Source: Candidatus Omnitrophota bacterium (GTDB lineage: Bacteria > Omnitrophota > Gorgyraeia > 2-02-FULL-51-18). Taken from it: a stretch of DNA of 58,731 nt. Under the pieces are notes generated by a model. That model did no database searches and was not told where the DNA came from. It saw nothing but the letters and a program-made list of their open reading frames with translations. Of the stretch, positions 14,411-38,433 are shown piece after piece. Each line of letters starts with the position of its first letter. The stretch's first letter is position 1. The stretch spans positions 1-58,731 of the forward strand of contig JAHFFN010000005.1 of the NCBI GenBank assembly GCA_023247915.1. The letters run 5' to 3'. The translations under genes and the position numbers were made by a program.

Positions 14411-14483
14411 GCCCCGGTAGCTCAATTGGATAGAGCACAGGTTTCCTAAACCTGCCATGGCCGTTCGATTCGGCCCTGGGGCA
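14411..14483 (+). tRNA. tRNA-Arg(CCT)
   Basis: GCCCCGG/CTGGGGC acceptor stem, TAGCTCAATTGGATAGAGC D arm, CAGGT-TTCCTAA-ACCTG anticodon arm, GTTCGATTC T loop; CCA not encoded. Confidence 0.93.
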
Positions 14484-14662
14484 CGATTTTTTCAGCCCTA
14501 CTCATAAAAGCTTAATTTTAATCAAACTTTAATAAATCATTATCAAACTGTCTTCTTGTATTCTGGCGGGGGATTGTGTACACTTCGCGAAAGTTCATTT
14601 AATTTCTTTTTTTGGCGGGTTTTTGCAGGGGTTTAGAAAACTGTTAAGGAAGGGGTCGATAC

Positions 14663-17600
14663 TTGAGAAAAACGAACAAGTTTTTGAAGGTTGTTTCGTC
14701 GCTTTTGGTGTATACCTTTATCTGCGAACAGCTGGCGTTCGCCAATCCTGATCTTTCCGCGATTAAGCTCGATTTATTTGCCAAGCCTAAAGTTGATTTG
14801 GGTATCCCCGAATCCGTTGCCACCGTCGAAGATGCCTTTGTGGGAACGGGATCTCCCAAGACCATTTATCTTATTCAAGACGCCCACACCAACACCTCCG
14901 GGCAGTTCAATGTCGCCAAAACTCTCGACCTTCTTTTTCAAAAAAATAAACAATTAAAATACGTTTTTCTCGAAGCCGGTCAAGGCGACGAATCGCTTTC
15001 TTTCTTAAGACAATATGCCAGTCTCGAAAAAAGAAAGCAGGCCTCCGAAGCTTTCTTGAGACAGGGGAAACTTCAGGGCTCTGAATACTTTGACCTGATC
15101 TCCGACAAACATCTTGTCCTGTGGGGCGTCGAAAACCTCAAGCTTTACGCCCAATCCGTCGAAGCTTATAAGGAAGTCGCCAACAATCGCGAGAAGTTTG
15201 AAGACTACCTCAAAAAGATCGATGTCACCGTCGATACGCTAAAGCCTCGTATCCTGAATCCCGCGCTAATGGCTTTTGACGCCAAGTATCAAAAATTTGC
15301 CAAACAAGAAATTTCTCTGACGGATTATTTTGCGATATTAGACGAGCAAGCTACCCACTTGCAGATTTCATTAGAAAAATACCCGCATTTCCAAAAGCTT
15401 TCCAAGCTTAAAAAACTTGAAGAAGAGATCGATTTCCAAAAAGCCAATGAAGAACAGGTCAAGGCTATTCAATCGTTAGATGCCAAGACTCAAGCCGAAC
15501 TTCTCGAAGCCTCCAAGGATAATTCCGCGTTAAGGCTGAAAGGGGAAAACAAAGAAAATAGAGCTTTCCACGCGCTTCTTGAAGAGAGGTTGAAAGGACT
15601 CCAGGCGTCCTGCCCTGAATTAAATAAATATTTTAACTACCTGAAAGAAGCCAACAAGATCGAACCTCGGCAGATTCTCCAAGAACAGAAAGATCTTGAA
15701 AAAGAAATCCTGGGGGCGTTGATCGTTACCGCCGATGAAGAAAGCCTACTCAAAGCCTCACGGAATCTCGAAACCCTGAAAAAACTTTTAAAACTGACTC
15801 TTACTCCCGAAGAGTGGGACGAGTACCAGAAAAACAAAACCTCTTTTGATGTCACCCGGATGACGGGCTTCCTTAATAAGAAGATTATGGACTTTGAAAC
15901 TTATTATGAGCGCGCGCTTTTCCTAGAAGAGGGGTATGAACCGATAGTCCAAAAAGCCGAAGAATTTTACTCGCTCACGTATCAACGCGACCAAGAGTTC
16001 ATCCAAAATCTCCAAACCAAAATGGACACCGAAGGCCAAAAAGAAGCCGTCCTCATTACCGGCGGTTTTCATAGCCCCAACCTTAAGTCCCTTTTGAAAC
16101 AAAAAAATATCTCTTTCGTTAATCTGACACCTCAAGTTCTCCAAGAAACCAATCAGAAACGTTATGAGGAGATTTTGTTGGGTCAAGTTGAGAGCCTTGA
16201 GAAATCCTTTGTCTCTCAAAATAGAATGTCTCCTTCCCGCGGGATCGCGACCCACATGGATCCTATACGCGTGCCAGCAGAAAGGGCTGTATTTGCAGTT
16301 GGGTTAGGGATAAAGAGTGATTCTACCGTCTTAAAAATATTAGGAGATCGGCAACAAAGATTGGCAGCAGGCTTGCTTGGCTTCTCTGGTGCTCGATTGT
16401 CCTCAAGCTTGAGCGATTCGCTTGTTGAATTTGTAAAATTAAATGGTTTTGAAGCAGTGCTCAATGCGTTTCTCGAAACGATCCCTAGCACGCCGGAAAT
16501 GACATTCCCGACAGTGAGATTCCTGAAAGTGAGTAGCGCAGAAACACCAGGTAAAATAGACTTCAGTTACTCTCTTGGAGATCCTCTTTTTACTGAAGCC
16601 CTGAGAGGCAACAAGCCCTTTTCCTTTAACAAAGAATTTAATTTGAGAACAGCAGAAGGTTTGAAGAGATTTTTTAAAGAAATTAACCGCAAGCCTGACG
16701 ATTTTTATTCTTGGCTAATAGGGCATCGTTACGAAGGTGTGTTCGACACAGGATTTATAGCTGCACTGATTAATCAGGCTAAGTCCGAGGAAAAATTAAA
16801 TGTGCGTGCAGGCAAGGGAGTCGAAAAAAATTCCGTTCTATATTTTGATGGCAAAAAAAACCAAAAAAATCCTCGGTTTGATATCTCCGATCCTGATGAG
16901 TTGCTTCGGCTGATGATGGCAACCGGAGTGACTTTTGAGGATCTTGAGGTTCAGAGAGCCATTCACTACGACAGGAGTTCGGGAGAGCCGAATAATGCAG
17001 CTGAAGAAGGGTGGGATGATTGGAATTTTAGCTCTCCGAATTCTCCAGTCTACAGAGGTTCCCCTGAAGTGGCGGCTCCCCTTATCGGCGCCCGCCTGGG
17101 GGTGATTCAAGATGCCCAGGAAGATATCACAAGAGCGCTTGGTCGTCGTGTGCGCATAGCAGCGGCCAGTAACTTTATGGCATCGGCTGAGTTTGCAGTA
17201 GAGCATACGAGTGATTTTATTTTTAAGAGGAATCTTGTTGAATTAGTCAGGACGGCTAAAGATGCACGTCTAGAATTAGTAGTTTTGCCGCGAGACCTTA
17301 CACACAATGTTGATTATTATGCAAACCACGTTGAGGTGCCCGTTCAATATGTTGCTAATAAACGGGTAGCTGTCAAAAATATCGTATTTTATGCCGAAGA
17401 AGACACTGGCTCGAAAGTTATTAGCGTAGAAACGAAAGTGGGAAGTTTTGTTGTGCCTAACCGCGTTTCCACATGGGAAGACAATGGCACGCTTTTGGTC
17501 AATATCGGATCCTCAAAGTCTCCCAAAAAATTAGAAGAAATAGAAAAGGTTCTCATAAAGGTTTTATTAGTAGACACAAAAAGCTCAAGAAAAGACGGTG

Positions 17601-20600
17601 CTCGCCTGTCAAAAACTTCAGACCTAACAGAGCCTCTCGCTGTGTGGGGTCAATTAATGGGAAATCCGGAATTTACGAAAGAATATCAAATAGTTCAGGA
17701 GGGCGGAACTCTTGTCCTTAAAACCAAATCAGGTAAAACACTTTCGCAAAAAGGAATCGCTGATCTGGGAACCCACTCCGCATGGGAGGAGTTCTTAAAG
17801 CCCACGCTTGGCGCCCGACTGGCTGATAAGTTTGGACTCCAATGGCATGACCTTCAAGGAATGGGTGGGTTGACGCTAGTAATTCATTTACGAGTTATTG
17901 TTAGTAATCAGGGGGACTATCCAAAATTCATAGTTGATGAAGCTAGAAAATTGATTGACGATCTTCGTGGTACAGGGGGGACGGCTCCGAATTATCATAT
18001 TTATGTTGAGCGCGCCAGATACTTGATGGAGGCCGTCAGGCTTTTGCGTGTTTTAGAGGCTATTATCCCTACAGCTGATTCGGAAATGGCTGCGGAAATG
18101 GCTGCCGGTTTAAGAAATGAATCGGGCGATAATTTTGCAACTTACAAAATACGAGTGGTGCAGGCTCGAGATTGGATCGGCGCCCGGCTGGCGAGAGCTC
18201 CAAAAGCTCTGAAAGATCCAAAAGCTTCGCGTCGGAAATTTGTTGCGGCTCAGAGGGAGCTTCTTGTATGGGATACGGCGCAAACAGAAAGAGTTTTGAG
18301 TGTTTTAGAAAAAATCCAAAGATCGAGATCTAAAAAACCCTCGAAAGTGGATATAGACGTAGTAATTTTGGCTTTGGCGGGCGACGAATGGATGCCTTTG
18401 ACAATGCTCGATTATCTTCACAAAAATCGTATGGATTTGACGGGCATTACGGCAGACCAAAGAGCTCGCCTAATCACCGCTCTAAAAAACCTTTCCCCAG
18501 GAAAAGCGCGCAGAGAAGTTTTAGCGAAGCTCGTTCGCCCCAAGATAAAAGCCAAAACTCCCAAGAGATATATATTGGATCATGGTGATCGTTTGATTGC
18601 TGCCCGGCTGTCAGGAGCCGCTTCTAAGCTACGCATCGCACTGGCTGGGGAGGATTTTGATGGCTCTGGCGAGGCTAATTTTGATCGTGGATTGTGGCTA
18701 ACCAATACGGGGGCTCAAGATACCTTAAATGGAATCATTTACTCTAATGAAAATTTTGATCCAAAGAGAAATGTTGTCGGGCATCGAGCCAATCTTCAGG
18801 TGGTATTAAATGGCAGTTCGCTTATTTTAAAATGGAACAATCAGACGGAGTACAAAGAGCGATTAATACGCAATTTACCGACTATACGAGAAATCCTGAT
18901 CCGCGTTTCCAAAGAGAACCGCCTTGTATTTGAGGACCAGACTCAAGGCGCCCGCCTCGCGGACAAACAGCCAGCTTCTCAGCGTACAGCACCTCTACCG
19001 GCTCGTATAGAATTTCACGACAAACTCCCGCCTGACCTGACGATAGGGAAACAAGTTGAGATTAAGTTGGATTCAGAATTTGGCGACAAGTTTAATGATC
19101 TTTGGGTAAGAGCGACTGTCGAAGGTGTCGAAGGGGAGAAGGTTCTGTTTCGGATTGCTTCGGGGGATGATGTCGATGCAACCCTTCGAGGTGTCCCAGT
19201 AAAAATTTATAATGAACGGACATTATCCACAGTTCGTCCGCTCGACGTTTTGGTGACGGATGCCCGGTCGTCCGGAGAGCCAGAAAAATTAACATGGATC
19301 GCGGAGTGGGAAACGCTTGGAAATTGGGGAGGGGTGAAGCGAGAGCTTTCGGCTATTGAGGATAAAGTTCTCCAAACTCATCTTAGAGGTAAAATCAACC
19401 GCCTTGTCAATATTCTAATCAGAAATGATCTTTTCTATTTTGCGCATCTAGACACGGCCATCCCAGTAGTGATTCAAAGGATGCAAGCGGATTCTTTTCA
19501 TTCATGGGAGCCTCTCATACGAGCCATCACGGCCGCTGAGTCTGGCCAAGACCCTTATCATATATTGATTAATGGCGCCCGGCTGGCAAAACCTCGTACT
19601 GCGTCCCGCGCTGTGCGTAAAACCTCAGATCTGACAGAGCCTCTCGCTATGTGGAGCCAGTTAATGGCAAATCCGGAATTTACGAAAGAATATCAAATAG
19701 TCCAGGAGGGTGGAACCCTTGTCCTTAAAACCAAATCAGGCGAAACGCTTTCGCAAAAAGGAATCGCTGATCTTGGAACCAACTCTGCATGGGAGTTGTT
19801 CTTAAAACCCACGCTTGGCGTCCGGTCGGAGACAAGAAAATATAGACTGATTAAGCGAATAGAAAGCGTTTTGCGTCTCAAAAGAAATTCAAAAATCAAG
19901 GAGCCGTATAGCGCTTCTGAAATCGAAGAACTCATCAAAGCTTTAAGACCCCTGGATGGTGTTGATTGGCGCCCCTCGATATCCGCTGCCGATAAGCTTG
20001 GAGATGCCAAATCTTCCAAAGCCATTGAGCCTCTGATGAAGTGGCTTGAGGATGGACGTGTTTATGATTTTCAAAAAGCCGTCGCTGAAGCTCTTGGTAA
20101 AATTGGCTCTGCCAAAGCCGTCCCTGCTCTGATTAAAACCTTTAATTTGCGTGACGATAGACGACCCCAGAAGGCTTACATCGCGGCTCTTGGGGATATT
20201 GGATCTATTAAGGCCGCACCATTTTTAATCAGAGTTTTGAAAAGTGGCGAAACCGAAGTCATTCGTCAAGCAGCCAAAAAAGCTTTGCGTCAGATCCATG
20301 AAAATTTAAAAAGGCGTGGAGCCCGACTAGCACTAACAAGCGACGTGATTAAGGGGGCAGTGGCGGCATTTAAAGAGGTCGCATTGTCTTCTAGATATAA
20401 GGATAGAAAAGATAGGGATATTATTGAGCAGAATTTAAATCGAGTGTTGCGAGCCAATCTTAGCATTACTTCGCGCGTAGAAGTGTTGGGTCAGCTTAAT
20501 TCGGCTGTGAATTGCTATCGAAGCCTCTCCCAGAAGCCAGATGCGGGAGCCCTTAGGAGAATTGACGATATTATTAATCAAATTTCTCGGGCGCAAGAGG

Positions 20601-26600: not shown

Positions 26601-29600
26601 AATTTTTGATAGCCAATATTCAATTTTCTTCTCAGCGAGATGAGATTGTTATTCAATTGATCAGCTCCTTCAAAGATCTCAGCATGAATGAAATCGCCAC
26701 TCTTGAGCATTATGTGGAGATTCTGGTCAAGCTAAGGCTAACCAAATCGGAAACCGAACAGGCGCTTCGTTCTTTAGAAGCCCTTCAGTCTAAACTTGCG
26801 ATCCATTCCACCGAGCTCACCTTTGCTCGTGCGAATGAGGCCACTTTATACGTCGCCACCAGCCTTCTTAAGCGTGTAGAAGAAGCCATAGCCACATTAT
26901 CTAAAAAACCCGCCGGTGCCCGCCTTGGGACGGGGCAAAAAGAAAGCCTGCCTTTTACTAAAGCTCAATTAGTTCGAATACATTCTGAGGGAGTGGCTAA
27001 GCTACCACGGAAAGATTATATCGTTGATTTAGCAATAGATAACCAGCCAACTCAAATTAGGGCGAATAGTCTCGTAACGACTCTTGAGCAGTTACAAGAG
27101 GGCGCTCTTTATGTGATACATGCTTTGCATGTTAACCATATTTCGGGGCAAATAAGCCTAGGTATTCATTCAGTGGTGGCAGCTGCGAGATTAAGTGGTT
27201 CGGCGATGAGAGCTATTTATTTATCGTTAACGATTATGCTTTCCGGCGTACTACAAACAGTTGCGGATACGGTGCAGTTTGCATTTGATAAAGGAAGAAC
27301 ATCCGTAACGGTGCTCGTCAATGGTAAGCCGCAACCGCGGAGCCGTCTCGTGGGCGCGAATTATCAACCGACAGAGCCCGGACAACACATCACTCATTAT
27401 CAGGAAGGCAAAATACGCGAGCTTGTCGCCCAGCTCCTTCCCAAAAATGACCCCACCTTGGTGGCGTTAGGACTTGGAGAGATGGGGAAGAATGATTTAG
27501 AGCGAATGAAAAAGACCGGCATCTACAACATCCATCTTTATCAGGTACCTTTGGAAGATAAAGCGGATATTGACGCGGTTAAGAAAATTTTAAGACGCGC
27601 TCACGAATTGAATAAAGATTTTTATGTGTCGGTCGGACATTGGGCGGGGCTCTGGTCTCAACCCGGTTCCCCTGAGCTTTCCGCTAACACGTACCAGGAG
27701 CGCATGAAAGTCGTCGACAGCGTGATGAATATGGTCAAGCTTTACGCCGAAGAGCCTTGGGCGGGTAAATGGGTGGTTGGCGTTGAAAATAATTATTATG
27801 CCAGAGGCGGCGCTTTTGCCGGCACCAAGTCTTTGCCGCTGCGCATTGGCAGTGAATACTACGACTTTATGGTGCAGCTCGCCGTCGCGATTAAATGGCA
27901 AGAGAGGCAGCTTAACACCGCCGCTAAGCCCGTGTATCATCCGGTGGTTTTGAGCAATGGCAGCCTCACGGAGTCTCAAGCTCAAATCATCAAGGAGATG
28001 AATGAGAAATGGGCTAAGGAATTGAATGGAGAATTGCCTGTTGATGCGATCGGGGGAACTTTTTATCCTGGAATTAATTTTGAGGGTCAAAAAGTAAGCG
28101 ACAATGGCATTGCAGAAGCATTTGAACATTTTGTTAAACTATCTTGGGAGATCGCGGGACTTCCGCTGGTTGTCGTTGAGACCGGACCCTGGGCTCAAAC
28201 CGTCAACTCCGACGAGCAAGTTCGTTGGTATGGCGCTGCGAAACCGGCATTTGTAAACACTGGCAAATTTGCTGGGATCGATATTTTTGAATTCATCAAT
28301 GAAGGCGGTTGGAAATCTCGCGAGACAGGCCGCGCCAGTGAAGATTGGTTTGGAATTTACACCAATGAAAGAGAGCCCAAGCTTTTTGCGCGTCAGGGAG
28401 CTTTCACCGGATTGAAATGGGAAGATGGCAAAGTCCTACCATTCGAACAGCCGGCCGCTTTAAAGCCTTTTCCGACGCAACCTGTTTTCTTGAGAACGCG
28501 CACAGCTTCTACACAAACTCCTGCGGCTGATAGCTCCATTATTCAACTCGAAGGCTTCCAGACTTGGAGCGGCGCCGGAGCTTTTTCAACGTATAAAGAT
28601 ACCCGAGTTAATTTAACCGGATACAAAACAGTTCGCCTTACTTTTAATACTACCGACGCTGGCGCTGAATTTTATATTCGTCTTTTAGATCCCGCCGGCG
28701 CTTACGACTCCAACTCAGGATCTATGGGTCCATTCCGAGTGCCCAAAGCTTCTGATGTGAATCAGCCGATTACGATGGAAATAGGAATCACCGGAGGAAA
28801 TATCAAACAATTTTCAATCCACACAGGAACGGTTTGGGATAATTCAACACACCTTCCCAAAAGAAATCTAGTCCCCATTAAAGTAGAGTTTTTAAAAACA
28901 CCCCCAGCCAAAAAAACCGGCGGCGCGCGGCTGTCCAATCAAGATTCGAATATGGACGTTGCGTCTATAGCCAAGATATTTTTTGAGCGTGTGTTGACGC
29001 CTGAAAACAGAGTCAAGATCTCTCGGTTTTTAGCGGATCATTTTTCTTCGCCTTTTTCTTCTCAGCCCGAGCGCTTATCCTTCGAGCATTCTGGCTACCG
29101 ACTGGTTTTGACCTCGGAGCCGAGTGGTACTGAGGAATTCCCATTAACCGTTTTGATTGAAAAGAAAATAGGGTCTTTTAATGCGGATGAAGTTGGCGCG
29201 TTTGAAGCGTATAACTTTTTGTTTCATGAGAGAGCCAGCGGTCTTAAAACTTTCGAAAAACAACTTTTAGCGTCTCGCGATTTTTCCAAGCCTTTGAAAG
29301 TGCAGTTTAACATGATGCCATTCGCTGCTTATATTGATTCTAAAAAGCCCGACCGAATTAATTTCGTCATGGAGTACCGTCGTGTCCCCACTGGCGCGCG
29401 TTTGGCGGCACCCGAGGCGTACACAACTCAAGTTTTTAAAGCAAAAGGTTCGGACTTTGCACACAAAATTACGGTGACGAAATCTCCCGATGGAGTCTTA
29501 GCGATTGATCTGCAGACGGACTCTTTTGTTGGTTATACCCTGGTAGGGCATTTTTCTTCAAACTTTGAAAGACCGCTTGAAGTCGATCCTGCTTTTTTGA

Positions 29601-32600
29601 GAGAGTTGTCCACTGAGTTTTCTTTTGATCATGATATTCTGCGTAGAATCAGAGAAATGATGCAGGTCATAAAAGCACAAAACGTGGAATGGTTCGCGGA
29701 AACAATCAAAACAGCTCTTGAAACAGGAAGCATAGAATTATACCCCGGCATCTCTCACCACGATGCGGCTATGGCTATTCTAGAGCAACCGTTATTTACG
29801 AAAAATCAATTCATTGGGGAGCATTCTCAAAGTCTGAGCCATGCAGAGCGCACGATCCTGTCGCGTATTTACCAAAGACATGGCCAACTAGGGGGACGTA
29901 GGGCTGACATCGCTACTCATCAAGCCGCGCGTTTGGCGACGGCCGTCAGCATCGACGAGCTAAAGAAAACCGATCCAGAGATAGCAGCGGCACTGGAACG
30001 AAGAGGTGTCAAATTTGTTTACAATCATAGGGACAAGAACCATACCGTGGACGTTCTGCGGGCGATGAGAGAGCATGGAGATTCTCCGTCGTGGTTGCAT
30101 TTTCTTAGCATTCTCGACCAAGCGGCAACGCATAGCGGGCTGGATGCCGTTTATTTTGGTCCTACGGTTGAAAAAGATTATTTTGATGCTAGCCTTGAAA
30201 AATATTTTACGCCATCACCCAAGCTAATCACGCTTTCTTTTACAGGGAACACCCTTAATTTCAAAGCGCAGAATCTAGAACCTAAAAAACATCAAATTCT
30301 TTTAAGTTTAGGGGCAAACTCTGATTCTTTGGCATGGCAGTTGACTCGCAAAGGCTATTTCGTTACTCAAGCAACCGATTATCATTATAACCATCCCCAG
30401 CAGTATGCATCGCACTCTTACACGGATTATGATTATTTGGTAACGGACAAAGCAGCGATTGCTGAGCATGCCCGTTCTGTAGATTCCGCCTTGTCGGTGA
30501 TTCAAACGCCTGAGCCGGGCGTTTCCCTGCGGGATGATTCCGCTATTGTCGAAGAGATTAGTCGAAGGACCGAGCTTCGCTTTTTAGGATTTGATAATTT
30601 TAATCCTCCGCTTGTTCATGACAATGGCGTTCATCAGACGCTAAATAAAAATGAGCAGATAATCTATTTTGATGTGAATTTTGACCGCTCATTGACAGAG
30701 AAAGAGCTCAAAAGATTGAAGGTACAGCTTTATTATGAAGATCCGCAGGGAGATGGAAACCAATGGTTTTCCGAAGAAGCGATAGAGCCTCTTAATGCTG
30801 AAGACCCTCATGGTTCTTATCAGTTCTCTGTTGCCCTGCATCCCCGGGTACGTCAATATAAAGTCAGAGTTTCTTGGGACGGGGGATATGCGTGGCACTA
30901 TTTTAAACCTCAAAATATCCAAGTGCATTATGCTCCCTCCGCCGGCGCGCGTTTGGCGGATTCGATACCGTCAGTAAGTCGTCAGTATTCGCTCACAGCG
31001 GCGCAGGCGGATGCCATCAAAAGATGGTTAACGCCATACACAGGGCAGACCGCTCCAAGCGTCCATCACTTTGTGCATTATTTTTTACGGGATAATTACG
31101 GCTTCATTATTCCGGCACGCGATGCAGGCATCTTAAAGGAGGAGGCCACTGTCGAGGTGCCGAATCGATCGATTCGTATCAATGATCAAGATGGAATTAC
31201 ATTTGTCCAGATGAGCCTCTCCGGAGACGGCCGCACTTTAACGTTAAAGGCTCTCGCGAAGGAAAAAAATTCCTACGGAAAAGATTCCAATGGACTGTTG
31301 GAAATATTTAAAGGCTATATTTCTACTACAGTAGAAAGTGAATTACATCCTGTCGTTGCCGCGCGTTTGGCGGCGGAAAATCTCGATCAGGGGGATGTAA
31401 TTTATATGGGCGGAACCGGTCCGCGGATTGTGCTGAAAAATGACAATCTTAAACCCGTCAAACCGACTCACAGAATACAAACTTTGCTTGTAGACGAGCA
31501 TCATCTAAACACTCCTGAATGGGCCACGCTTGACTGGTTTGAATCTCATTTCGAAACCGCCGTGCGGTATATGCCGAATAGGTTTTTTAATGGCCAGGGA
31601 GAGCCCTCAATTTATCAAACAGCTTTATTTCAGGTCACCGAGGGTTCTTATGCAGGCATTTATCATGGCATGCTAATAAGCGATCGAGATCCTGAGATGG
31701 CCGAGATCTTGAGTTATGAGCCCACCCAGCACACTTTATTGCCTTTCGAAGGAAGATTGATTCAAGTTGAAAAATCTAAAGTTAGGTTTTTCCCTCACAA
31801 GTCTTTGATGGTCGATAACTCGAGTACCGCCGCGTCTCGTGCGTTGAAAAGATATATTGATGAGAAGACTAAAGAGTGGGGCGACAAGAAGCCTTCCAAG
31901 GTTAAAGCGGGTTGGGATAGAGTTCACATTGAATGGAATGACGGATCTTCGCATACTTGGGATCTGACGAAGGGTGGCGATTTGGAATCGATCGCGTATT
32001 GGTTAAAGGGTAATTTATCCGAGCTTGATTCTATGCGCGCGATGATTGCCGAGGCCATCCGAAATGCAGCCGATTTTACTCCAGAGAACATTACTCGGAG
32101 AGCCAGAGAAGTCATCGCCAATGTATTGCGTGAAAAAGGGGTGAGTATAGATCAAATTGCCTTAGACACAGATCTTGAAACGTTGGGATTAGATTCGATA
32201 GATCATGTGGGAATGGTGTTGGATCTGGACGAAGAATTTGAAATCGATATTCCCGACGCCGCTTCCGCAGAATTCAAAACCCTGTCGGACGTGGTGCGCT
32301 GCATTCAGCAAATCAAAGCGCCCGAAGCTCCCGCCGCGCGTTTGGCGGGAAATGAATCCTTGGTCGAAGAGGTCAGAGCTTTTGACGCGGCGGCTTTGAA
32401 TCCTACAATTTGGGATAAAAACACGGGTCTTGCTATCGTCAAGCCCGCTCAAACGATCAATGAATTTCCGGAACCCATGCGGCCATTTTTGAGTGCAGCG
32501 ACGATTCATGATGAACGAGGAAATTTTACCCCGGGGCAACTTGTCACTTCTTCTCTCCAAATGCCCTCAGCGATGAATACGCCTGGTCTGAAAGAGAAAA

Positions 32601-35362
32601 TTTTCGAAGAAGCTACGAGTTATGCCAATAAAATCCGCGCTGGCGTTGCCCAGTCGGGCGGTCAGCTCAAATACTTGCTCTGGGTGGGCATGGGCGGATC
32701 AATCGAAGACAAGTACGCGGCGCTTGCGACCGGCACCTTAAAAGGACAAGTTCACTTCTTCGGTCTCGATGACGTGGATCCCAGCACAATCCAGGAAATT
32801 TTTGACGAAATCGTTCTTCAGGAAGCGGCGGAGATGGGGATAGCCGCTATTGATTTTACCGATAAGCAGTCCACCGCTTATCAAACAGCACTCGCCAGCG
32901 GGTTGCGTAAAACGGCGGTGGTGGGACAGGCATTGGGCAAGACCTCGGTCGAACCTATTTTTAATATTGAAAAAGCACTGCTTCCTCAATTCCAAGCGTT
33001 TGGTCTAGCCACGGAAAATCATTTCTGGAAAATCACGATCCCAGGTTCTTTGTTGGATCTGGGTCTTTTGCAGGACAAACCGCAAAACAATATCCCGCAT
33101 CAATGGGGAGGCCAGTCCACGTCCGCCGGTCGCCACGATTATGTTACTTACGGCTTCCTGATTCCGTACATTCTTTCCGGCGGAAATCCCGAAGACTGGG
33201 CGAAGGGGCTCAATCTTACTCAAGAGGATAAGGTTCGAGCTTTTGAGGCGGCTGATTGGATGTTCGCGAATCAGCAGGCAGGTAGAAACAAAGTTGTGCT
33301 CGCATTTCCCGAAGAATGGCAAGGCCATTTCAACGACGACCCAACTTGGCTCGATCCGAGTCTCTGGTTTAAACAGCATCTCGAAGAGTCTCTTGGCAAA
33401 ACACCCTCTTTTATTTTAAAAATCGTAACGACACTCAACTTTTCTTTGGCAAGTTCTTGGAAAAAACCCGAAGATAAAACGGATCAGGTAGTGCTTGTGG
33501 TGAAAATCAATGGGCTTAAAAATTTATCCGATGCAAAAATCGCTAGCTTGAGAGAACGAGGCTATGAAGTGCATGTGCTCGATTTGAGTTCGGCTCAAGA
33601 GGGTGAAGCTTTGGCTCGTGCGATGCAAGTATTTAATTATGCCAAGTTCCGCTTGGCGATGAAAGCCGGACTCATTGGAGTTAACCAGCCTCCGGTCGAG
33701 TTTTACAAAGGAATCGTCCAGTGGATACGCGGCGAGAAAAATGATTACCCCAATCACGAAAAAGTGAAAGCAATTTTTGAAGCGTCCGGAACGCATGTAA
33801 TTGGTCAAAACGGTTTCAAAGTCAGCTGGGAAACTCTTGTGCGCTCGGGTGTTTTGAAGCCTGAGGAACTTGATCATGAGATCGCCAGCCTTGGGCTTGA
33901 CCGCAACAACCCCGCCGACGTGGCTGGCGCGATTTATCGGATTGCTTTACGAAAAATCGGCTCCGGCGCTTATGGTGAATACATGGTATTTGGCAATTTA
34001 AATCGGGGTCACGACGCTAAAAATTTGAGAGACTTGCTGAGTGACCCGCTCTCCAGCGTCCAACGTTTGTGGCGGGAGGATCTTCATAGTTTTGCGGATA
34101 TCGGCAAAGGCCCTGGAGCCGGACATTCACATCACGCGATGAATATCCAAGGTCAGGCAATTGCCCTCCAGGTAGCGGTGAAGAGACATGCGGGGCTGCA
34201 GAAAGCTCTCGGTTTTGATACGCGTTATTCTACGGCTAATTCTTGGGCTAATAACTTAGCGCTGGCCGGTTTTAGTGTACCGCCGTCATCCAGCCCGAGC
34301 GATGAACTCAAGCTGAATCCCGAAGCCAACAAGGGTTGGGCGGTGCATCTTGAAATTCCAGAAATCGACGAGATATTAGATCTTGAGCAGTTTTTTGATC
34401 GTATGAAACAAGTGGTGTCCATGTCCGAGCCGACTGCTACTGCTGGTGCGCGTTTGGCGGGAAATGAGATACCACTTCGCGATGCGCTTAAAACAACATT
34501 TTTTACGGCAATCGCTATGCTGGTTTCTGGTAAGAAGGCATTTGCCTTGGAAGAGAATAATAAAATTCGCGTTTACAATTTGAATCGTCAAGAGGATAAA
34601 CTTCTTGTTGAAGTTGATGGCGGGGAAAGCTATACGCTCGACATTTCCTCAGGGGCTGTCAGTCAGGCTCACCAATCCCAAATCAAAGAAGCTGTCTTTA
34701 ATGAAGATTTGACAGACAAGCTCCAAACTATTTTATCGACCAATCGTGGTGCCGGATCGCCTGTGATCGTTGGCAGCGCTCCCGCGGTATTTCTTATCGA
34801 TCTAGGTGCTTTTTCGGACAAAGCAGAACTTGAAAATCTTCTTCGCCAGCAAGATGCCCGCCTAGATTCAAAATCAGCGGTGGCATTTTTGGGGGATGGG
34901 GAACAAGTGAAGGAAGCTCTGACATTTGTTAGCACGCTGAGACTTAAAAAGACTTCCCAATTTGTGGGGTCAGAATCTTTGAGCGAAGATCTGAAAGACG
35001 CTCCCCATATTCTATTGACCAAACAAGGTTATTTGACATTGGCCAATATCAACCATCACCGTCTTTTCCAAATCACTTTGCAGGCCAATCAAAGTCATCA
35101 AGCAGCGGTTTTTGCGTTTGGCGCTGTTCAGTCCATTATGGATCTGGTGGCTGAAGGAAATCTTGAAAAGGCCTTTGATCGTTTCCTCACCTTGGCTCCG
35201 CAATATCGCGGGCGGATGTCCTTCAAAGACTTTGTGGATGGCTATCTCAAGGGCAAAAAAGAGGTGATTGACCAATTTCCTCTGCCGGCCACTGTTTGGG
35301 CAAGCTTCCGGGATGCCATGCGTCTCAACCAGCTGGCTCGTACCGTCGAGTCGAACGCCTAA
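14663..35362 (+). CDS. giant (6899 aa) secreted modular protein with 30 [G/A]ARL[A/S]-type junction motifs
   Basis: Uninterrupted 20.7-kb ORF; TTG start after AGGAAGGGG; N-terminal Sec-like signal (MRKTNKFLKVVSSLLVYTFICEQLAFA|N); recognisable internal domains. Confidence 0.92.
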   Translation: MRKTNKFLKVVSSLLVYTFICEQLAFANPDLSAIKLDLFAKPKVDLGIPESVATVEDAFVGTGSPKTIYLIQDAHTNTSGQFNVAKTLDLLFQKNKQLKYVFLEAGQGDESLSFLRQYASLEKRKQASEAFLRQGKLQGSEYFDLISDKHLVLWGVENLKLYAQSVEAYKEVANNREKFEDYLKKIDVTVDTLKPRILNPALMAFDAKYQKFAKQEISLTDYFAILDEQATHLQISLEKYPHFQKLSKLKKLEEEIDFQKANEEQVKAIQSLDAKTQAELLEASKDNSALRLKGENKENRAFHALLEERLKGLQASCPELNKYFNYLKEANKIEPRQILQEQKDLEKEILGALIVTADEESLLKASRNLETLKKLLKLTLTPEEWDEYQKNKTSFDVTRMTGFLNKKIMDFETYYERALFLEEGYEPIVQKAEEFYSLTYQRDQEFIQNLQTKMDTEGQKEAVLITGGFHSPNLKSLLKQKNISFVNLTPQVLQETNQKRYEEILLGQVESLEKSFVSQNRMSPSRGIATHMDPIRVPAERAVFAVGLGIKSDSTVLKILGDRQQRLAAGLLGFSGARLSSSLSDSLVEFVKLNGFEAVLNAFLETIPSTPEMTFPTVRFLKVSSAETPGKIDFSYSLGDPLFTEALRGNKPFSFNKEFNLRTAEGLKRFFKEINRKPDDFYSWLIGHRYEGVFDTGFIAALINQAKSEEKLNVRAGKGVEKNSVLYFDGKKNQKNPRFDISDPDELLRLMMATGVTFEDLEVQRAIHYDRSSGEPNNAAEEGWDDWNFSSPNSPVYRGSPEVAAPLIGARLGVIQDAQEDITRALGRRVRIAAASNFMASAEFAVEHTSDFIFKRNLVELVRTAKDARLELVVLPRDLTHNVDYYANHVEVPVQYVANKRVAVKNIVFYAEEDTGSKVISVETKVGSFVVPNRVSTWEDNGTLLVNIGSSKSPKKLEEIEKVLIKVLLVDTKSSRKDGARLSKTSDLTEPLAVWGQLMGNPEFTKEYQIVQEGGTLVLKTKSGKTLSQKGIADLGTHSAWEEFLKPTLGARLADKFGLQWHDLQGMGGLTLVIHLRVIVSNQGDYPKFIVDEARKLIDDLRGTGGTAPNYHIYVERARYLMEAVRLLRVLEAIIPTADSEMAAEMAAGLRNESGDNFATYKIRVVQARDWIGARLARAPKALKDPKASRRKFVAAQRELLVWDTAQTERVLSVLEKIQRSRSKKPSKVDIDVVILALAGDEWMPLTMLDYLHKNRMDLTGITADQRARLITALKNLSPGKARREVLAKLVRPKIKAKTPKRYILDHGDRLIAARLSGAASKLRIALAGEDFDGSGEANFDRGLWLTNTGAQDTLNGIIYSNENFDPKRNVVGHRANLQVVLNGSSLILKWNNQTEYKERLIRNLPTIREILIRVSKENRLVFEDQTQGARLADKQPASQRTAPLPARIEFHDKLPPDLTIGKQVEIKLDSEFGDKFNDLWVRATVEGVEGEKVLFRIASGDDVDATLRGVPVKIYNERTLSTVRPLDVLVTDARSSGEPEKLTWIAEWETLGNWGGVKRELSAIEDKVLQTHLRGKINRLVNILIRNDLFYFAHLDTAIPVVIQRMQADSFHSWEPLIRAITAAESGQDPYHILINGARLAKPRTASRAVRKTSDLTEPLAMWSQLMANPEFTKEYQIVQEGGTLVLKTKSGETLSQKGIADLGTNSAWELFLKPTLGVRSETRKYRLIKRIESVLRLKRNSKIKEPYSASEIEELIKALRPLDGVDWRPSISAADKLGDAKSSKAIEPLMKWLEDGRVYDFQKAVAEALGKIGSAKAVPALIKTFNLRDDRRPQKAYIAALGDIGSIKAAPFLIRVLKSGETEVIRQAAKKALRQIHENLKRRGARLALTSDVIKGAVAAFKEVALSSRYKDRKDRDIIEQNLNRVLRANLSITSRVEVLGQLNSAVNCYRSLSQKPDAGALRRIDDIINQISRAQEAWQVERRAKKAQIRKWMKQIRVVLTDSFVEDIDDDIYLLLEEKKSTQGWSDRESVAHQLADTKSLKVVKALSKSLLNDRVARVRIAAANSLANIGFSEAIPSLIKALKDEDKGVRNQVVQALGAIKSLRVIRSLIPILKDKDIEVVHSVVKALGDLGSPKAVPALIEVLKHENEEIRGEAIKALGNIGSPEAIPALIELHGKDAHSAPIIEKALVRIYNKMDGSAGARLASKFTAVPSMLALTQLRLSETSKMSFTPQGMPEVFVNYAYVEDADRSNFTDLIQAIAPGLISKDQISSIRGAGVLFADDTPDRNLGLGVFSALTFVVDGERYLVTLFKKDDLSKKARLEKITRAYWQFMYDRPELSTQETEPVSVTVAKTEGDWKAGTFRIWPQQKGATAARLAGSQKRMDAIEYSIRRDLEQVGIHHITDFNPDHPTSHVLGVLRDLYPLQSGGVGYALTSGEADSWVRLMNVLRYANQHFKTNEIYMDIHFDAHAVRAWLNGKDHLVVSINSNAAGHFTLDFHPRTDLRKPFLQGRTSLRVDSAGQIHEEIIGARLAEYVSPFVIQPSFDLSNPTQVIASENLQRPPAAASGRRDFILYLVKGDGKFYIRLNKKEGVETGQFIIGLENLGEAFIRRYLFNDDGLNLSILSFSSPENNFIEFIYGDSYDAQQAAVMFKGILDSYHRSIVTPTGTHGQTDGPRDEEGARLSLKNSSEFVVRRNHRSQSSTSLSLPTPNSNSAARLSSSNIHVYTPEQFNSLVQNGLIKRGDIISYGSGGSMFFSDAIFARMALDKDGKRGTVVLILNGSADQRESEIKFREGMMFAASVDLMLKNQKLNARKDVEANRKKVKGSGIFKRKALYVRKTFFPSTVRNIHWGERRFFVQFVESRNNRFKITRESEYHEKYDIYEFIYKISIPPGKIRGIEDIHFLMSLLGDGFHDRRWGFYSNTGPWWRDDEEFIRWFSKIAKKIGTSASSPSPLTSSLGSEATNSGARLASFSKVLITDFLKDNSPLGKNVWIKINNAPTNVSWARHAEDAWMIHGHNGHIGTIPNIGLQPLTSRDVVAIERFWPIEMISDLLKRKPQKLLMVQSGAGKNYLVREDGLFLEVDANDVIQASWGQLQANALTDDFLGQLPQVKAWINGTFGSKKFWRQIAPHLTRLLKFNSLSGSRLAEDKGVEVEQLIAFSPKDQSITINSPLVAPADRTIHLFGDGETTFTLITSEVLAEQLNRWVPGFPKGVRERISFQPNPDLAEGVLILDSSREKGEERIGSLLLWDDLEDLAQDFAAYLNPFLKSRIPQFQENLFQRLFTSGYSRLIRQRFVIGSSVSMGSIWISFLAPSTLCRFVLMPMLENTNNKEAFGFIAYFAGVAIALHLFNRLSDKLAGSKSTKGARLAAGTLSREETKDAKSLAGEIASKTRVQLLGIQKKLKLLQGFDEEKGLTKKQESTTISIRKSAQKIESLSLFALLKEATIRPGQEVLMDTLSTRTGKELQSDPPQFDLKYTATIISVLAEDLLLTGEKRFLRGIRASVEKAVRIVSNLAAYASSAELTTNFKSVRSFKKKQFRIIDLSKYSAARLATLPLTQLRLSETSKMSATPQGMFDVLVKYAYVEDADRSNFAELIQAIAPDLIAKDKTSSIRGAGILFADDTPDQNLGLGAFSALTFLLDGKRYLITLFKKDDLSQKARLEKITRAYWQFMYDRPELSEREADPVSVTVAKTEGDWKAGTFRIWPQQKSVTAARLTGNNSKFIRTFLAALLIGVGGWFLSKSAKQETKSVSLKFNSWSTQAPVFYRYQAQQASSGKVMTRMASIKTSEKIILNASQKLRMMIRANQVNPQNKEEAITLTLIGTDAFGKPLKIYAGYMTFTSKGTYEAVFSLNELGPRVIHVNELLLMGVPVTSADDRSFIPDWIVKDEIVIEEAAVPGGARLAKRNQHFFVIWGSFIALLLLPLIPESSKKLASPAGLVENTNVSIDKIYSAFETISKKEKSLEEREKAVQFLIANIQFSSQRDEIVIQLISSFKDLSMNEIATLEHYVEILVKLRLTKSETEQALRSLEALQSKLAIHSTELTFARANEATLYVATSLLKRVEEAIATLSKKPAGARLGTGQKESLPFTKAQLVRIHSEGVAKLPRKDYIVDLAIDNQPTQIRANSLVTTLEQLQEGALYVIHALHVNHISGQISLGIHSVVAAARLSGSAMRAIYLSLTIMLSGVLQTVADTVQFAFDKGRTSVTVLVNGKPQPRSRLVGANYQPTEPGQHITHYQEGKIRELVAQLLPKNDPTLVALGLGEMGKNDLERMKKTGIYNIHLYQVPLEDKADIDAVKKILRRAHELNKDFYVSVGHWAGLWSQPGSPELSANTYQERMKVVDSVMNMVKLYAEEPWAGKWVVGVENNYYARGGAFAGTKSLPLRIGSEYYDFMVQLAVAIKWQERQLNTAAKPVYHPVVLSNGSLTESQAQIIKEMNEKWAKELNGELPVDAIGGTFYPGINFEGQKVSDNGIAEAFEHFVKLSWEIAGLPLVVVETGPWAQTVNSDEQVRWYGAAKPAFVNTGKFAGIDIFEFINEGGWKSRETGRASEDWFGIYTNEREPKLFARQGAFTGLKWEDGKVLPFEQPAALKPFPTQPVFLRTRTASTQTPAADSSIIQLEGFQTWSGAGAFSTYKDTRVNLTGYKTVRLTFNTTDAGAEFYIRLLDPAGAYDSNSGSMGPFRVPKASDVNQPITMEIGITGGNIKQFSIHTGTVWDNSTHLPKRNLVPIKVEFLKTPPAKKTGGARLSNQDSNMDVASIAKIFFERVLTPENRVKISRFLADHFSSPFSSQPERLSFEHSGYRLVLTSEPSGTEEFPLTVLIEKKIGSFNADEVGAFEAYNFLFHERASGLKTFEKQLLASRDFSKPLKVQFNMMPFAAYIDSKKPDRINFVMEYRRVPTGARLAAPEAYTTQVFKAKGSDFAHKITVTKSPDGVLAIDLQTDSFVGYTLVGHFSSNFERPLEVDPAFLRELSTEFSFDHDILRRIREMMQVIKAQNVEWFAETIKTALETGSIELYPGISHHDAAMAILEQPLFTKNQFIGEHSQSLSHAERTILSRIYQRHGQLGGRRADIATHQAARLATAVSIDELKKTDPEIAAALERRGVKFVYNHRDKNHTVDVLRAMREHGDSPSWLHFLSILDQAATHSGLDAVYFGPTVEKDYFDASLEKYFTPSPKLITLSFTGNTLNFKAQNLEPKKHQILLSLGANSDSLAWQLTRKGYFVTQATDYHYNHPQQYASHSYTDYDYLVTDKAAIAEHARSVDSALSVIQTPEPGVSLRDDSAIVEEISRRTELRFLGFDNFNPPLVHDNGVHQTLNKNEQIIYFDVNFDRSLTEKELKRLKVQLYYEDPQGDGNQWFSEEAIEPLNAEDPHGSYQFSVALHPRVRQYKVRVSWDGGYAWHYFKPQNIQVHYAPSAGARLADSIPSVSRQYSLTAAQADAIKRWLTPYTGQTAPSVHHFVHYFLRDNYGFIIPARDAGILKEEATVEVPNRSIRINDQDGITFVQMSLSGDGRTLTLKALAKEKNSYGKDSNGLLEIFKGYISTTVESELHPVVAARLAAENLDQGDVIYMGGTGPRIVLKNDNLKPVKPTHRIQTLLVDEHHLNTPEWATLDWFESHFETAVRYMPNRFFNGQGEPSIYQTALFQVTEGSYAGIYHGMLISDRDPEMAEILSYEPTQHTLLPFEGRLIQVEKSKVRFFPHKSLMVDNSSTAASRALKRYIDEKTKEWGDKKPSKVKAGWDRVHIEWNDGSSHTWDLTKGGDLESIAYWLKGNLSELDSMRAMIAEAIRNAADFTPENITRRAREVIANVLREKGVSIDQIALDTDLETLGLDSIDHVGMVLDLDEEFEIDIPDAASAEFKTLSDVVRCIQQIKAPEAPAARLAGNESLVEEVRAFDAAALNPTIWDKNTGLAIVKPAQTINEFPEPMRPFLSAATIHDERGNFTPGQLVTSSLQMPSAMNTPGLKEKIFEEATSYANKIRAGVAQSGGQLKYLLWVGMGGSIEDKYAALATGTLKGQVHFFGLDDVDPSTIQEIFDEIVLQEAAEMGIAAIDFTDKQSTAYQTALASGLRKTAVVGQALGKTSVEPIFNIEKALLPQFQAFGLATENHFWKITIPGSLLDLGLLQDKPQNNIPHQWGGQSTSAGRHDYVTYGFLIPYILSGGNPEDWAKGLNLTQEDKVRAFEAADWMFANQQAGRNKVVLAFPEEWQGHFNDDPTWLDPSLWFKQHLEESLGKTPSFILKIVTTLNFSLASSWKKPEDKTDQVVLVVKINGLKNLSDAKIASLRERGYEVHVLDLSSAQEGEALARAMQVFNYAKFRLAMKAGLIGVNQPPVEFYKGIVQWIRGEKNDYPNHEKVKAIFEASGTHVIGQNGFKVSWETLVRSGVLKPEELDHEIASLGLDRNNPADVAGAIYRIALRKIGSGAYGEYMVFGNLNRGHDAKNLRDLLSDPLSSVQRLWREDLHSFADIGKGPGAGHSHHAMNIQGQAIALQVAVKRHAGLQKALGFDTRYSTANSWANNLALAGFSVPPSSSPSDELKLNPEANKGWAVHLEIPEIDEILDLEQFFDRMKQVVSMSEPTATAGARLAGNEIPLRDALKTTFFTAIAMLVSGKKAFALEENNKIRVYNLNRQEDKLLVEVDGGESYTLDISSGAVSQAHQSQIKEAVFNEDLTDKLQTILSTNRGAGSPVIVGSAPAVFLIDLGAFSDKAELENLLRQQDARLDSKSAVAFLGDGEQVKEALTFVSTLRLKKTSQFVGSESLSEDLKDAPHILLTKQGYLTLANINHHRLFQITLQANQSHQAAVFAFGAVQSIMDLVAEGNLEKAFDRFLTLAPQYRGRMSFKDFVDGYLKGKKEVIDQFPLPATVWASFRDAMRLNQLARTVESNA
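14744..16387 (+). other. N-terminal domain of the giant protein, putative TIKI/TraB/ChaN/EreA-like metallo-hydrolase with a large helical insert
   Basis: IYLIQDAH75, YVFLE104, LWGVE, QR442D443QEF and AVLITGGFH470 occur in the order typical of this fold; recognised by eye only. Confidence 0.55.
17612..17821 (+). repeat. duplicated module A, copy 1
   Basis: KTSDLTEPLAVWGQLMGNPEFTKEYQIVQEGG...FLKPTLGARL; near-identical to 19619-19828. Confidence 0.95.
19619..19828 (+). repeat. duplicated module A, copy 2
   Basis: KTSDLTEPLAMWSQLMANPEFTKEYQIVQEGG...FLKPTLGVRS; same 198-nt distance to the junction motif as copy 1. Confidence 0.95.
19920..21260 (+). other. HEAT (PBS-lyase-like) repeats in two adjacent modules of the giant protein
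   Basis: Repeated ~31-aa units such as AVAEALGKIGSAKAVPALIK, AAANSLANIGFSEAIPSLIKALKDEDKGVR, AIKALGNIGSPEAIPALIE. Confidence 0.9.
21323..21805 (+). repeat. duplicated module B, copy 1
   Basis: LTQLRLSETSKMS...AYVEDADRSNF...YWQFMYDRPELS...GTFRIWPQQKGATAARL; near-identical to 25352-25834. Confidence 0.95.
22739..22817. repeat. inverted 7-mer array read through in frame inside the giant gene
   Basis: AGTTCGG-AGTTCGT-AGTTCGG-AG (22739-22761) and degenerate complement CT-CCCAACC-CCGAACT-CAAACT (22796-22817). Confidence 0.65.
25352..25834 (+). repeat. duplicated module B, copy 2
   Basis: Same 471-nt distance to the junction motif as copy 1; ends SVTAARL. Confidence 0.95.
27194..28921 (+). other. 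clan GH-A glycoside hydrolase module (GH17/GH2-like TIM barrel) plus probable carbohydrate-binding beta domain
   Basis: GANYQP, VVGVEN (Glu codon 27785), DAIGGTFYP, PLVVVETG (Glu codon 28178), IFEFINEGGWK, EDWFGIYTNEREPK; Pro/Thr linker then a beta-rich aromatic domain. Confidence 0.7.
32090..32320 (+). other. acyl carrier protein-like domain within the giant protein
   Basis: REVIANVL...DTDLETLGLDSIDHVGMVLDLDEEFEIDIPD...KTLSDVV; phosphopantetheine Ser codon at 32195. Confidence 0.85.
32345..34444 (+). other. glucose-6-phosphate isomerase-like (SIS) module within the giant protein
   Basis: WVGMGGS (32687), divergent GKTSVE, SAGRHD, WFKQHLEESLGK, NQPPVEFYK resemble PGI motifs GxGGS, SKSGxTxE, GGRxS, QLxxESxGK, DQPxVExxK. 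Confidence 0.7.
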
Positions 35363-38307: not shown

Positions 38308-38313
38308 TCTCGC

Positions 38314-38342
38314 AGTATATGAAGCGCATTTATTGTTGTCAA
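38314..38342 (-). promoter_or_regulatory. sigma70 promoter of ino1, probably leaderless transcript
   Basis: Minus strand TTGACA-17 nt-TATACT, followed 6 nt later by the ATG; no SD. Confidence 0.7.
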
Positions 38343-38433
38343 GAAAAAGTCCGAAAAGTTTCGCGCTTTTCAAAGGAGAGGGCATCTGCTATAATGGCTC
38401 AATTTCTTAAAAGACAAACATGGAGAAAGCTTT

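Follow-up and report, generated by a model that had tools for sequence, protein, structure and literature searches.

Are the giant proteins of Omnitrophota single chains, or are they cut into pieces? The question is open, and it is addressed by a short motif that recurs in one such protein. The gene is an uninterrupted open reading frame (ORF) of 6,899 codons plus a TAA stop, at 14663-35362 on the forward strand of a 58,731-nucleotide stretch of JAHFFN010000005.1 (GCA_023247915.1), from a groundwater Candidatus Omnitrophota bacterium. This whole stretch is hereafter called the window, and positions are counted from its first letter. The protein consists, in order, of a signal-like helix, a conserved N-terminal region (the head), 30 cargo segments split by the junction motif [GA]ARL[ASGT], and a C-terminal tail. 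Passages of West-Roberts et al. 2023 (bioRxiv 10.1101/2023.11.21.568195) suggest, from C39 and S8 domains, the post-translational cleavage of Omnitrophota giants into several products, and state that the cleavage points were unknown, which blocked analysis. In our best reading, to which we give a little over an even chance, the present gene encodes a bacterial polyprotein that is cleaved at the motif, and the head is the candidate protease.

A Pentapeptide Recurs along the Giant Protein

The giant ORF starts with TTG, and a Shine-Dalgarno-like stretch (AAGGAAGGGG) lies just upstream. The protein contains 28 exact copies of the motif, whereas 2,000 shuffles of its sequence, a comparison proposed in an initial annotation of this DNA, give a mean of 0.16 and a maximum of 3. 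The variants GSRLA (residue 3149) and GVRSE (residue 1719) bring the number of sites to 30. The first is at residue 576, the segments between sites have 35-704 amino acids (aa), and the final segment has 302 aa. The initial annotation had described these 30 sites and segment lengths, and had remarked that the arginine and leucine codons of the motif vary. Its counts were reproduced, as were its codon sets (CGA, CGC, CGG, CGT, and AGA for arginine; TTG, CTG, CTC, CTA, CTT, and TTA for leucine).

All sites are on the forward strand. Numbered along the gene, GARLA is found at motifs 4 (17810-17824, residue 1050), 5 (18179-18193, residue 1173), 7 (18947-18961, residue 1429), 8 (19574-19588, residue 1638), 10 (20318-20332, residue 1886), 11 (21275-21289, residue 2205), 13 (22259-22273, residue 2533), 16 (23576-23590, residue 2972), 18 (24776-24790, residue 3372), 21 (26384-26398, residue 3908), 25 (29393-29407, residue 4911), 27 (30944-30958, residue 5428), and 30 (34445-34459, residue 6595). 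AARLA is found at motifs 12 (21794-21808, residue 2378), 19 (25328-25342, residue 3556), 26 (29924-29938, residue 5088), 28 (31358-31372, residue 5566), and 29 (32333-32347, residue 5891). GARLS occurs at motifs 1 (16388-16402), 3 (17597-17611, residue 979), 14 (22715-22729, residue 2685), and 24 (28922-28936, residue 4754), and AARLS at motifs 6 (18599-18613, residue 1313), 15 (22820-22834, residue 2720), and 23 (27182-27196, residue 4174). GARLG occurs at motifs 2 (17087-17101, residue 809) and 22 (26915-26929, residue 4085), and AARLT at motif 20 (25823-25837, residue 3721). Junction 17 (24107-24121) is the GSRLA variant. Junction 9 (19817-19831) reads GVRSE-TR and looks like the RSExR motif of distant lineages (see below).

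More than 20 synonymous codon combinations spell the motif while its amino acids stay invariant, and the flanking DNA beyond its 15 bases is not conserved between sites. Selection therefore acts on the motif peptide. The codons are nonetheless biased toward GCG CGG CTG and are GC-richer than the gene background (CGG 37% versus 12%, GCG 54% versus 29%), and the sets used are specific to genes or to blocks within them, each other giant of the genome having its own preferred set. In the window gene, the early motifs are mostly GCC CG[CGA] CTG, a few with GCT or GCA, while about the last eight, a block opened by motif 24, use GCG for alanine. The final six, from motif 25 on, are all GCG CGT TTG GCG. 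These blocks suggest either a separate history for the 3′ part of the giant gene or gene conversion. A single study provides three DNA runs whose contigs are identical across many junctions, an agreement that is not independent support because one of the runs may be the window's own source.

The Motif Lies between Protein-Sized Modules

Recognizable domains of the giants never contain the motif. Twelve relatives, nine of which have Pfam matches, were scanned unsegmented and pooled with the window protein. Dropping one overlapping methyltransferase row left 26 Pfam stretches, none of them with a motif inside. Once merged into 21 enzyme spans, they contain 0 of 118 motifs against 14.1 expected, and 0 of 10,000 random placements are as low. 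The statement of the initial annotation that recognizable domains do not straddle a motif thus extends to the relatives. Multidomain enzymes are kept in one segment: this is the case for domains I-III of phosphoglucomutase and for the N- and C-terminal domains of 2-hydroxyacid dehydrogenase and glutamate dehydrogenase. Segments have the size of the free-standing protein plus about 50 residues, for example 254 aa for adenylate kinase, 596 for PEPCK, 219 for NUDIX, and 94 for CsrA. Only within ±5 residues of the motif is the composition shifted, with fewer hydrophobic residues (0.24 versus 0.325) and more P/S/T/G (0.31 versus 0.23). In nine cases a transmembrane (TM)-like helix begins 0-17 residues after a motif; in the window protein, such helices begin 7 residues after motif 20 and 6 residues after motif 21. 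They resemble the signal anchors found at the N-termini of separate proteins.

A recognizable family can be assigned, in the window gene, only to the head, the tail, and a few of the 30 cargo segments. Searched against Pfam as 31 separate segments (E ≤ 0.01) and as one intact sequence (E ≤ 1e-5), the window protein gave only HEAT/Arm-type repeats, PP-binding, and a sub-threshold Peptidase_U49 (E = 0.0086). Two HEAT-repeat modules (residues 1722-1888 and 1889-2207; 19826-21283, forward strand as for all modules here) have motif 10 between them, and the Pfam HEAT matches at residues 1755-1834 and 2051-2183 cross no motif. Neither does the acyl carrier protein (ACP) domain at residues 5817-5881 (32087-32314; Pfam PP-binding and NCBIfam ACP), which forms the C-terminal end of module 28 and ends 7-10 residues before motif 29. 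A 704-aa module (residues 5894-6597; 32342-34453) may belong to a glucose-6-phosphate isomerase (PGI)-like family, according to a language-model lead (Atlas 0.96) and a weak NCBIfam match (E = 0.0018). For a 580-aa module with a hydrophobic N-terminus (residues 4177-4756; 27191-28930), a language-model lead (Atlas 0.94) is the sole basis for a possible TIM-barrel glycoside hydrolase. Neither segment has a family match in Pfam (E ≤ 0.01) or anything useful in PDB sequence searches. Among the domains that the initial annotation had named, HEAT and ACP are thus borne out and cross no motif, and the PGI-like and glycoside hydrolase domains stand as leads. Could the PGI-like module be the only PGI of the cell? 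This is ruled out by a canonical PGI gene on contig C3 (Pfam PGI, E = 9.7e-14, 561-aa frame), and the module of the giant is therefore an extra, diverged copy.

The last segment (302 aa; 34454-35359) ends in the conserved tail (residues 6863-6899, ...TVESNA-COOH). Among 165 head-bearing relatives, it is the only one of the 30 cargo segments to have a homologue (E < 1e-8), which is found at their C-termini. The segments had been described as mostly unrelated to one another, and so they are, apart from the two HEAT modules and two duplicated pairs. The first pair (residues 982-1052 and 1651-1721; 17606-17818 and 19613-19825) has 87% identity, and one copy ends in GARLA where the other ends in the GVRSE of junction 9. 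The second (residues 2208-2380 and 3559-3723; 21284-21802 and 25337-25831) has about 81-83% identity. Structure prediction for each segment was a further check proposed in the initial annotation. A single-sequence AlphaFold2 (AF2) model of residues 1040-2215, which include eight junctions, has a mean predicted local distance difference test score (pLDDT) of 43, too poor to place the motifs; the count of motifs in enzyme spans and the composition around the motif serve in its place.

Motif-Bearing Giants of the Same Genome

The genome has 1.65 Mb in 81 contigs, and the motif was counted in its six-frame ORFs of at least 100 aa. The strict motif occurs 163 times, 142 of them in 11 giant ORFs and 21 as single sites elsewhere. 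These giants (1,241-10,105 aa) total 52,201 aa, or about 9.5% of the genome's DNA, and the other six-frame ORFs total some 750,000 aa. Motif density in the giants is about 100 times that in these other ORFs, which answers the comparison with the rest of the proteome that the initial annotation had also proposed. There are 56 ORFs of at least 800 aa. Eleven have the motif, of which eight carry the shared head of about 550 aa and three lose their 5′ end at contig ends; the remaining 45 have neither motif nor head. This single genome contains at least nine such giant genes. The heads of the eight giants have 23-81% pairwise identity. The segments of different giants are unrelated, save the head and a few duplications, and duplicated modules align motif to motif. 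The leucine is followed by A, S, T, or G at 141 of the 141 motif sites tabulated for the genome.

Within the genome, the giants differ greatly in the size of their modules and in how densely the motif occurs. The longest ORF of contig C53 has 10,105 aa, lacks its 5′ end, and contains only nine motifs, one 4,528-aa segment, and 17 TM-like helices. The C-terminal end of the ORF on contig C35 is identical over 40 aa to the N-terminal end of the one on C46, and the two are therefore one gene split by the assembly. The gene on contig C32 has a counterpart of its head on C66 and of its tail segment on C46, about 81-82% identical, these being either paralogues or strain variants.

No conserved neighbour gene is found among the giants within the 8 kb examined on either side of each. 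The surroundings of the window gene are housekeeping genes on the same strand (aminoacyl-tRNA synthetases, PPDK, a sigma-70 factor, FtsH, and others). A tRNA-Arg(CCT) gene at 14411-14484 lies 179 bases upstream of the giant's start; tRNA genes are common integration points. Directly downstream there is an alginate-export-type β-barrel gene (35655-37121), and a myo-inositol-1-phosphate synthase gene follows on the opposite strand (37201-38385). Neither is beside the other giants.

The Head Resembles the TIKI Superfamily

Residues 1-27 (14663-14743, forward strand) form a hydrophobic helix ending AFA|NP, placed at residues 3-27 in the model. The signal peptide of the initial annotation is best described as this signal-like helix, of which the ending [EQ][QD]LA[FWY]A.P is kept in most paralogous heads with an assembled N-terminus. 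The head itself, defined from an AF2 model and an alignment of 32 heads, spans residues 41-510 (14783-16192, forward strand). Its model (pLDDT 81, predicted template modelling score 0.73) has an α/β core (strands within residues 53-156 and 461-490) split by a helical insertion of some 300 residues (159-457). A low-confidence linker (residues 511-575; 16193-16387, forward strand) leads from the head to the first motif, the mean pLDDT per 10-residue block being 35-62 over residues 501-578. E104, G135, G155, F435, Y436, R442, G467, G468, H470, P490, and Y501 are invariant in the 32 heads, and D73, A74, H75, Q81, E141, E157, and others are present in at least 90% of them.

When the head model was compared with 48,161 PDB chains using VIA-align, the top five matches all belonged to the TIKI/ChaN/erythromycin-esterase superfamily: 2g5g (Z 9.1, root-mean-square deviation [rmsd] 6.5, 191 residues aligned), 5t09 (Z 8.9, rmsd 3.9, 167 aligned), 6xcq (Z 8.5, rmsd 3.9, 161 aligned), 2qgm (Z 8.1, rmsd 3.9, 155 aligned), and 2rad (Z 7.7, rmsd 5.2, 157 aligned). 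These are ChaN, HopBA1, EreC, and two Bcr135-type proteins; RRSP (5w6l) follows at Z 5.9. Passages of a study of this superfamily (PMC6254334) name ChaN, HopBA1, EreC, Bcr135-type proteins, and RRSP as members. They describe a catalytic 2His/2Glu set, made of E-x-H, a Glu 28 residues on, and a second His (E3900, H3902, E3930, and H4030 in RRSP; H85 and E113 in Bcr135). The same passages present RRSP as a site-specific endopeptidase and indicate that the superfamily also holds esterases and a haem-binding protein. In the head, D73-x-H75, E104 (+29), and H470 fit this spacing when compared by pattern rather than by residue-level superposition, and may constitute a putative catalytic-type signature. 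From the modelled fold, the head is tentatively the leading candidate protease for the motif, with a probability that we put somewhat under even.

The Tail and Its Link to the Head

Complete giants of this genome end in ...[AS/N]A in seven of eight cases. Their relatives share a tail of some 30 residues, a strand plus a helix with no TM segment, that ends in [AS]A or, in one clade, in [AS]L. In the GARL clade, the motif is found within the last 25 residues of 16 of the 39 complete tails, about 2.8 being expected from its overall density, and 12 of these 16 tail motifs lie exactly 13 residues from the C-terminal end.

In some families the head is a separate gene of 548-558 aa (L015/G284, L016/G127, and L017/G236). 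It is directly followed on the same strand, with an overlap or a gap of a few bases, by ORFs of 1,096-3,304 aa that have signal-like N-termini of their own and tail-like C-termini. These operons look like a split form of the same system.

A complex of head and tail was predicted from head residues 40-510 and the last 37 residues of the tail, with 32-row alignments of each. The score was 0.48 (0.45-0.50 in three runs) against 0.01 for the best control, with a partner pLDDT of 69-70 and at least 82% of contacts shared between runs. In the calibration of the tool, its mark was reached by 58 of 80 solved complexes and by 2 of 110 mismatches, scores of 0.60 or less including only 7 of those 80 complexes and both mismatches. 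These counts hold roughly here, since custom alignments were used, and by the tool's own reading a pass at this level is wrong more often than right, except where the interaction was already likely a priori. Binding of the tail by the head is thus weakly predicted.

The Family across the Phylum

A search with the head retrieves 164 proteins of 1,013-2,890 aa and 46 of 3,794-12,074 aa, with the window protein among these larger ones. The named carriers are almost all Candidatus Omnitrophota/Omnitrophica, the others being one Auribacterota, one Elusimicrobia bacterium (two proteins), and two labelled "bacterium." Among 1.84 billion cluster representatives, 7,521 match the head at E ≤ 0.001 and 1,969 at E ≤ 1e-30 (clusters at 50% identity). 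In the 150 matches listed, the aligned part of the protein nearly always starts no more than about 125 residues from the N-terminus; a few matches start later (up to residue 317), and in these only the rear of the head is aligned. The head is matched in 187 of 301 sampled genomes of the phylum (135 of 247 high-quality ones), usually by several proteins per genome.

The initial annotation had proposed collecting homologues by the N-terminal domain. They do have different cargo, and several lineages have a recurring motif of their own. The cargo includes PEPCK, adenylate kinase, phosphoglucomutase, glutamate dehydrogenase, transketolase-like proteins, NUDIX, pyridoxal-phosphate enzymes, CsrA, kinases, and methyltransferases. 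In a further set of 71 close head-bearing representatives of at least 1,500 aa, 65 have at least three loose GARL-type sites and 46 at least three strict ones. Other lineages have GAR[AM]A (P0124, 10 sites; also P0015), GSR-type and GTRL variants, [PS]RM[TA] (P0138, 9 sites), [GA]ASLG (P0145, 10 sites), RAE[TV]R with RSE.R (P0155, 14 sites), or RSE[MLVIA]R (22 sites in P0167, 17 in P0162, 12 in P0152, 11 in P0158, 10 in P0166, and 8 in P0160).

In a FastTree phylogeny of 149 heads, a single clade of 64 members (support 99) holds all 40 GARL, 4 GARMA, and the PRMT labels. Motif class changes 22 times on this tree, against 52.9 in shuffles, none of the 200 shuffles being as low. Shared descent alone can cause this tracking.

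Weighing Cleavage against the Alternatives

A polyprotein read by a co-evolving protease is the simplest account of the evidence, because the pentapeptide is conserved, selected at the protein level, and swapped wholesale between lineages; because it stands nowhere but in short linkers where protein-sized modules meet; and because it occurs only in genes with one conserved hydrolase-like head. According to this account, the family would be a large, essentially Omnitrophota-wide set of modular giant precursors with a fixed frame: a signal-like helix, a head of some 500 aa with the TIKI/ChaN/erythromycin-esterase fold, variable and unrelated cargo, and a tail of some 30 residues. In the window lineage, [GA]ARL[AST], present at every module boundary in a short and presumably exposed linker, would be an endoproteolytic processing site. 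The 6,899-aa chain would undergo Sec-type export and then be released into about 30 separate proteins, some of which may be membrane-anchored by the helix directly after the motif. The head, encoded in cis, would be the leading protease candidate, and the tail may be the ancestral substrate or a docking element, because it often has the same motif 13 residues from its end. We infer both the cut (its agent, its bond, and its place in the cell) and the export of all modules.

Candidate scissile bonds are L|[AST], which would parallel C80-type sites, A|R, and R|L. A cut between A and R, considered because of the natural C-termini of the giants, was set aside for two reasons: tails throughout the family share the [AS]A or [AS]L end, and in the RSExR lineages no small residues are conserved before the arginine. 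A double-glycine (C39) leader-type site was rejected, the positions upstream of the motif not being conserved.

Several observations weigh against this reading. A well-supported clade of 43 heads (P0049-P0112, P0140, P0142, and P0143) with [AS]L-COOH tails has no junction motif in searches of pooled 3-5-mers, reduced-alphabet 5-7-mers, and gapped words. Some of its proteins reach 4,076-5,935 aa, and the conserved residues of the head are kept, so the head may do something other than cut junctions. No junction motif was detected in the operons with stand-alone heads either, and, since both these operons and the motif-less clade have head and tail, the primary job of the head may concern the tail or export. 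The Z-scores of the head, at 8-9, are in the middling range for VIA-align, and Foldseek finds no match to it in the PDB at E ≤ 0.001. The head has no Pfam family (E ≤ 0.01), no match in a PDB profile search (E ≤ 10), and only a chance-level row in NCBIfam. It is odd that modules of cytoplasmic type, such as the PGI-like one and ACP, would end outside the cytoplasm if they follow a true signal peptide. The equation of module with folded protein is verified for a minority of the cargo only, because most of it has no recognizable family or homologue. Finally, the biased and block-specific motif codons hint at a history at the DNA level as well; module shuffling at junctions may therefore also shape the pattern.

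A bolder version of the polyprotein reading seems to us possible but doubtful. In it, self-processing polyproteins would make up a sizeable part of the proteome, about 9.5% of the DNA in this genome. A cis-acting TIKI-type head would read a junction code that descended from a substrate in the tail and was rewritten several times (GARLA, GARMA, GASLG, PRMT, RSExR). Each gene would then free, outside the cytoplasm, dozens of fast-evolving proteins, diverged central metabolic enzymes among them, as effectors against prey or host.

Are the giants cut at all? They might be uncut, membrane-tethered multidomain proteins, in which the pentapeptide is either a conserved hinge or an element for recognition or docking, with the head, the tail, a chaperone, or an export factor as the partner; we consider this rather unlikely. 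The conservation of head and tail in the motif-less clade and in the split operons is consistent with it, as their function need not be junction cutting. So is the weakly predicted binding of the head to a tail that itself often has the motif. Passages of a 2026 preprint (bioRxiv 10.64898/2026.06.07.730766) also read Omnitrophota giants as single membrane-anchored architectures. However, usual interdomain linkers are not invariant pentapeptides replaced wholesale between lineages, some modules are proteins that are normally free oligomers, such as the CsrA module held between two motifs, and signal-anchor-like helices stand straight after some motifs.

If there is cleavage, the protease could be encoded elsewhere, the head serving in anchoring, export, or tail processing, or as an esterase. 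Heads with intact conserved residues in proteins without junction motifs would fit this possibility, as would the esterases and the haem-binding protein of the TIKI superfamily. Leucine at P1 with a small residue at P1′ is also the preference of the C80 domain in MARTX, according to PMC2780291, and quite different proteases could therefore read such a site. Yet no conserved partner gene adjoins the giants, Pfam finds no other protease domain in the giants of this genome, and the head is the sole element that always travels with the motif there. We hold a protease encoded elsewhere to be quite improbable.

That the motif is a footprint of gene assembly, i.e., a DNA-level recombination or cassette junction with no protein role, would accord with the hypervariable cargo and with the GC-rich, block-specific codons, but is very improbable given amino acids that stay invariant while the codons and the DNA beyond 15 bases do not, the shortness of 15 bases for homologous recombination, and the quite different peptides that other lineages hold at the same placement.

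Comparison with Known Systems

The motif and the head together give explicit cleavage-site predictions for thousands of proteins (the 7,521 head-bearing clusters), which would be the first predicted cutting points for Omnitrophota giants. The motif also offers a rational way to divide these proteins into modules for structure prediction and annotation. The architecture itself is real, well above chance, and phylum-wide, on a larger scale than the initial annotation had suggested; the re-writable junction code and a new protease family with re-programmable specificity are candidates. If there is processing, cellular organisms would use polyproteins across a phylum, and counts of genes and proteins would read differently. 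If the products are self-processed effectors, bacteria would have an equivalent of the polyprotein strategy of viruses.

Conserved C-terminal elements read by a dedicated peptidase are known from the C-terminal domain of the type IX secretion system (with PorU), from sortase, and from exosortase, and cleavage at Arg/Lys divides gingipain precursors into several parts. The giants differ in having no Pfam match to such signals or enzymes, and their tail is a strand plus helix of some 30 residues. In viral polyproteins, one ORF gives many mature proteins through a short recurring site that varies between lineages along with the protease-bearing part. The giants of Omnitrophota likewise have lineage-specific recurring sites, but they are encoded in a cellular genome by many paralogous genes, with hypervariable cargo and a candidate protease of a different fold, and their cleavage is predicted.

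MARTX toxins are very large secreted proteins from which several unrelated effector modules are freed by a protease in the same chain. Their C80 cysteine protease "cleaves exclusively after a leucine" (PMC2780291), and the sites of the giants, ..RL-[AST], also have leucine before a small residue. Unlike MARTX, which have glycine-rich RTX-type repeats at both ends, the window protein has no RTX repeats, and neither it nor the other ten giants have a Peptidase_C80 domain (Pfam). The candidate protease is the N-terminal TIKI-like head, the modules number 30 instead of a few, a strict pentapeptide that varies with lineage separates them, and the host is a groundwater bacterium with many such genes, not an animal pathogen.

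The giants of West-Roberts et al. 2023 and of Nielsen and Lui 2026 (the preprint mentioned above) are of the same phylum and, in the passages available, share the multi-kiloresidue size, the signal peptides or TM helices, and the mixed enzyme domains. The available text of Nielsen and Lui 2026 has no occurrence of cleav-, motif, polyprotein, proteolytic, or linker, and the passages of neither work mention the head, the tail, or the junction motif. Unlike the Archaeovorin and Dockerin-type giants in the passages of West-Roberts et al. 2023, those of this genome have no C39, S8, or SecA-related domains (Pfam). No description of Omnitrophota polyproteins with a junction motif was found in the literature searched, which leaves most subscription journals outside it.

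The head escapes the sequence models of the TIKI superfamily (Tiki, RRSP, TraB/PrgY, ChaN, erythromycin esterases, Bcr135/136, and HopBA1), has the long helical insertion, and is fused or adjacent to giant cargo, but its best fold matches are all from this superfamily, and its D-x-H...E...H pattern parallels the 2His/2Glu set in spacing.

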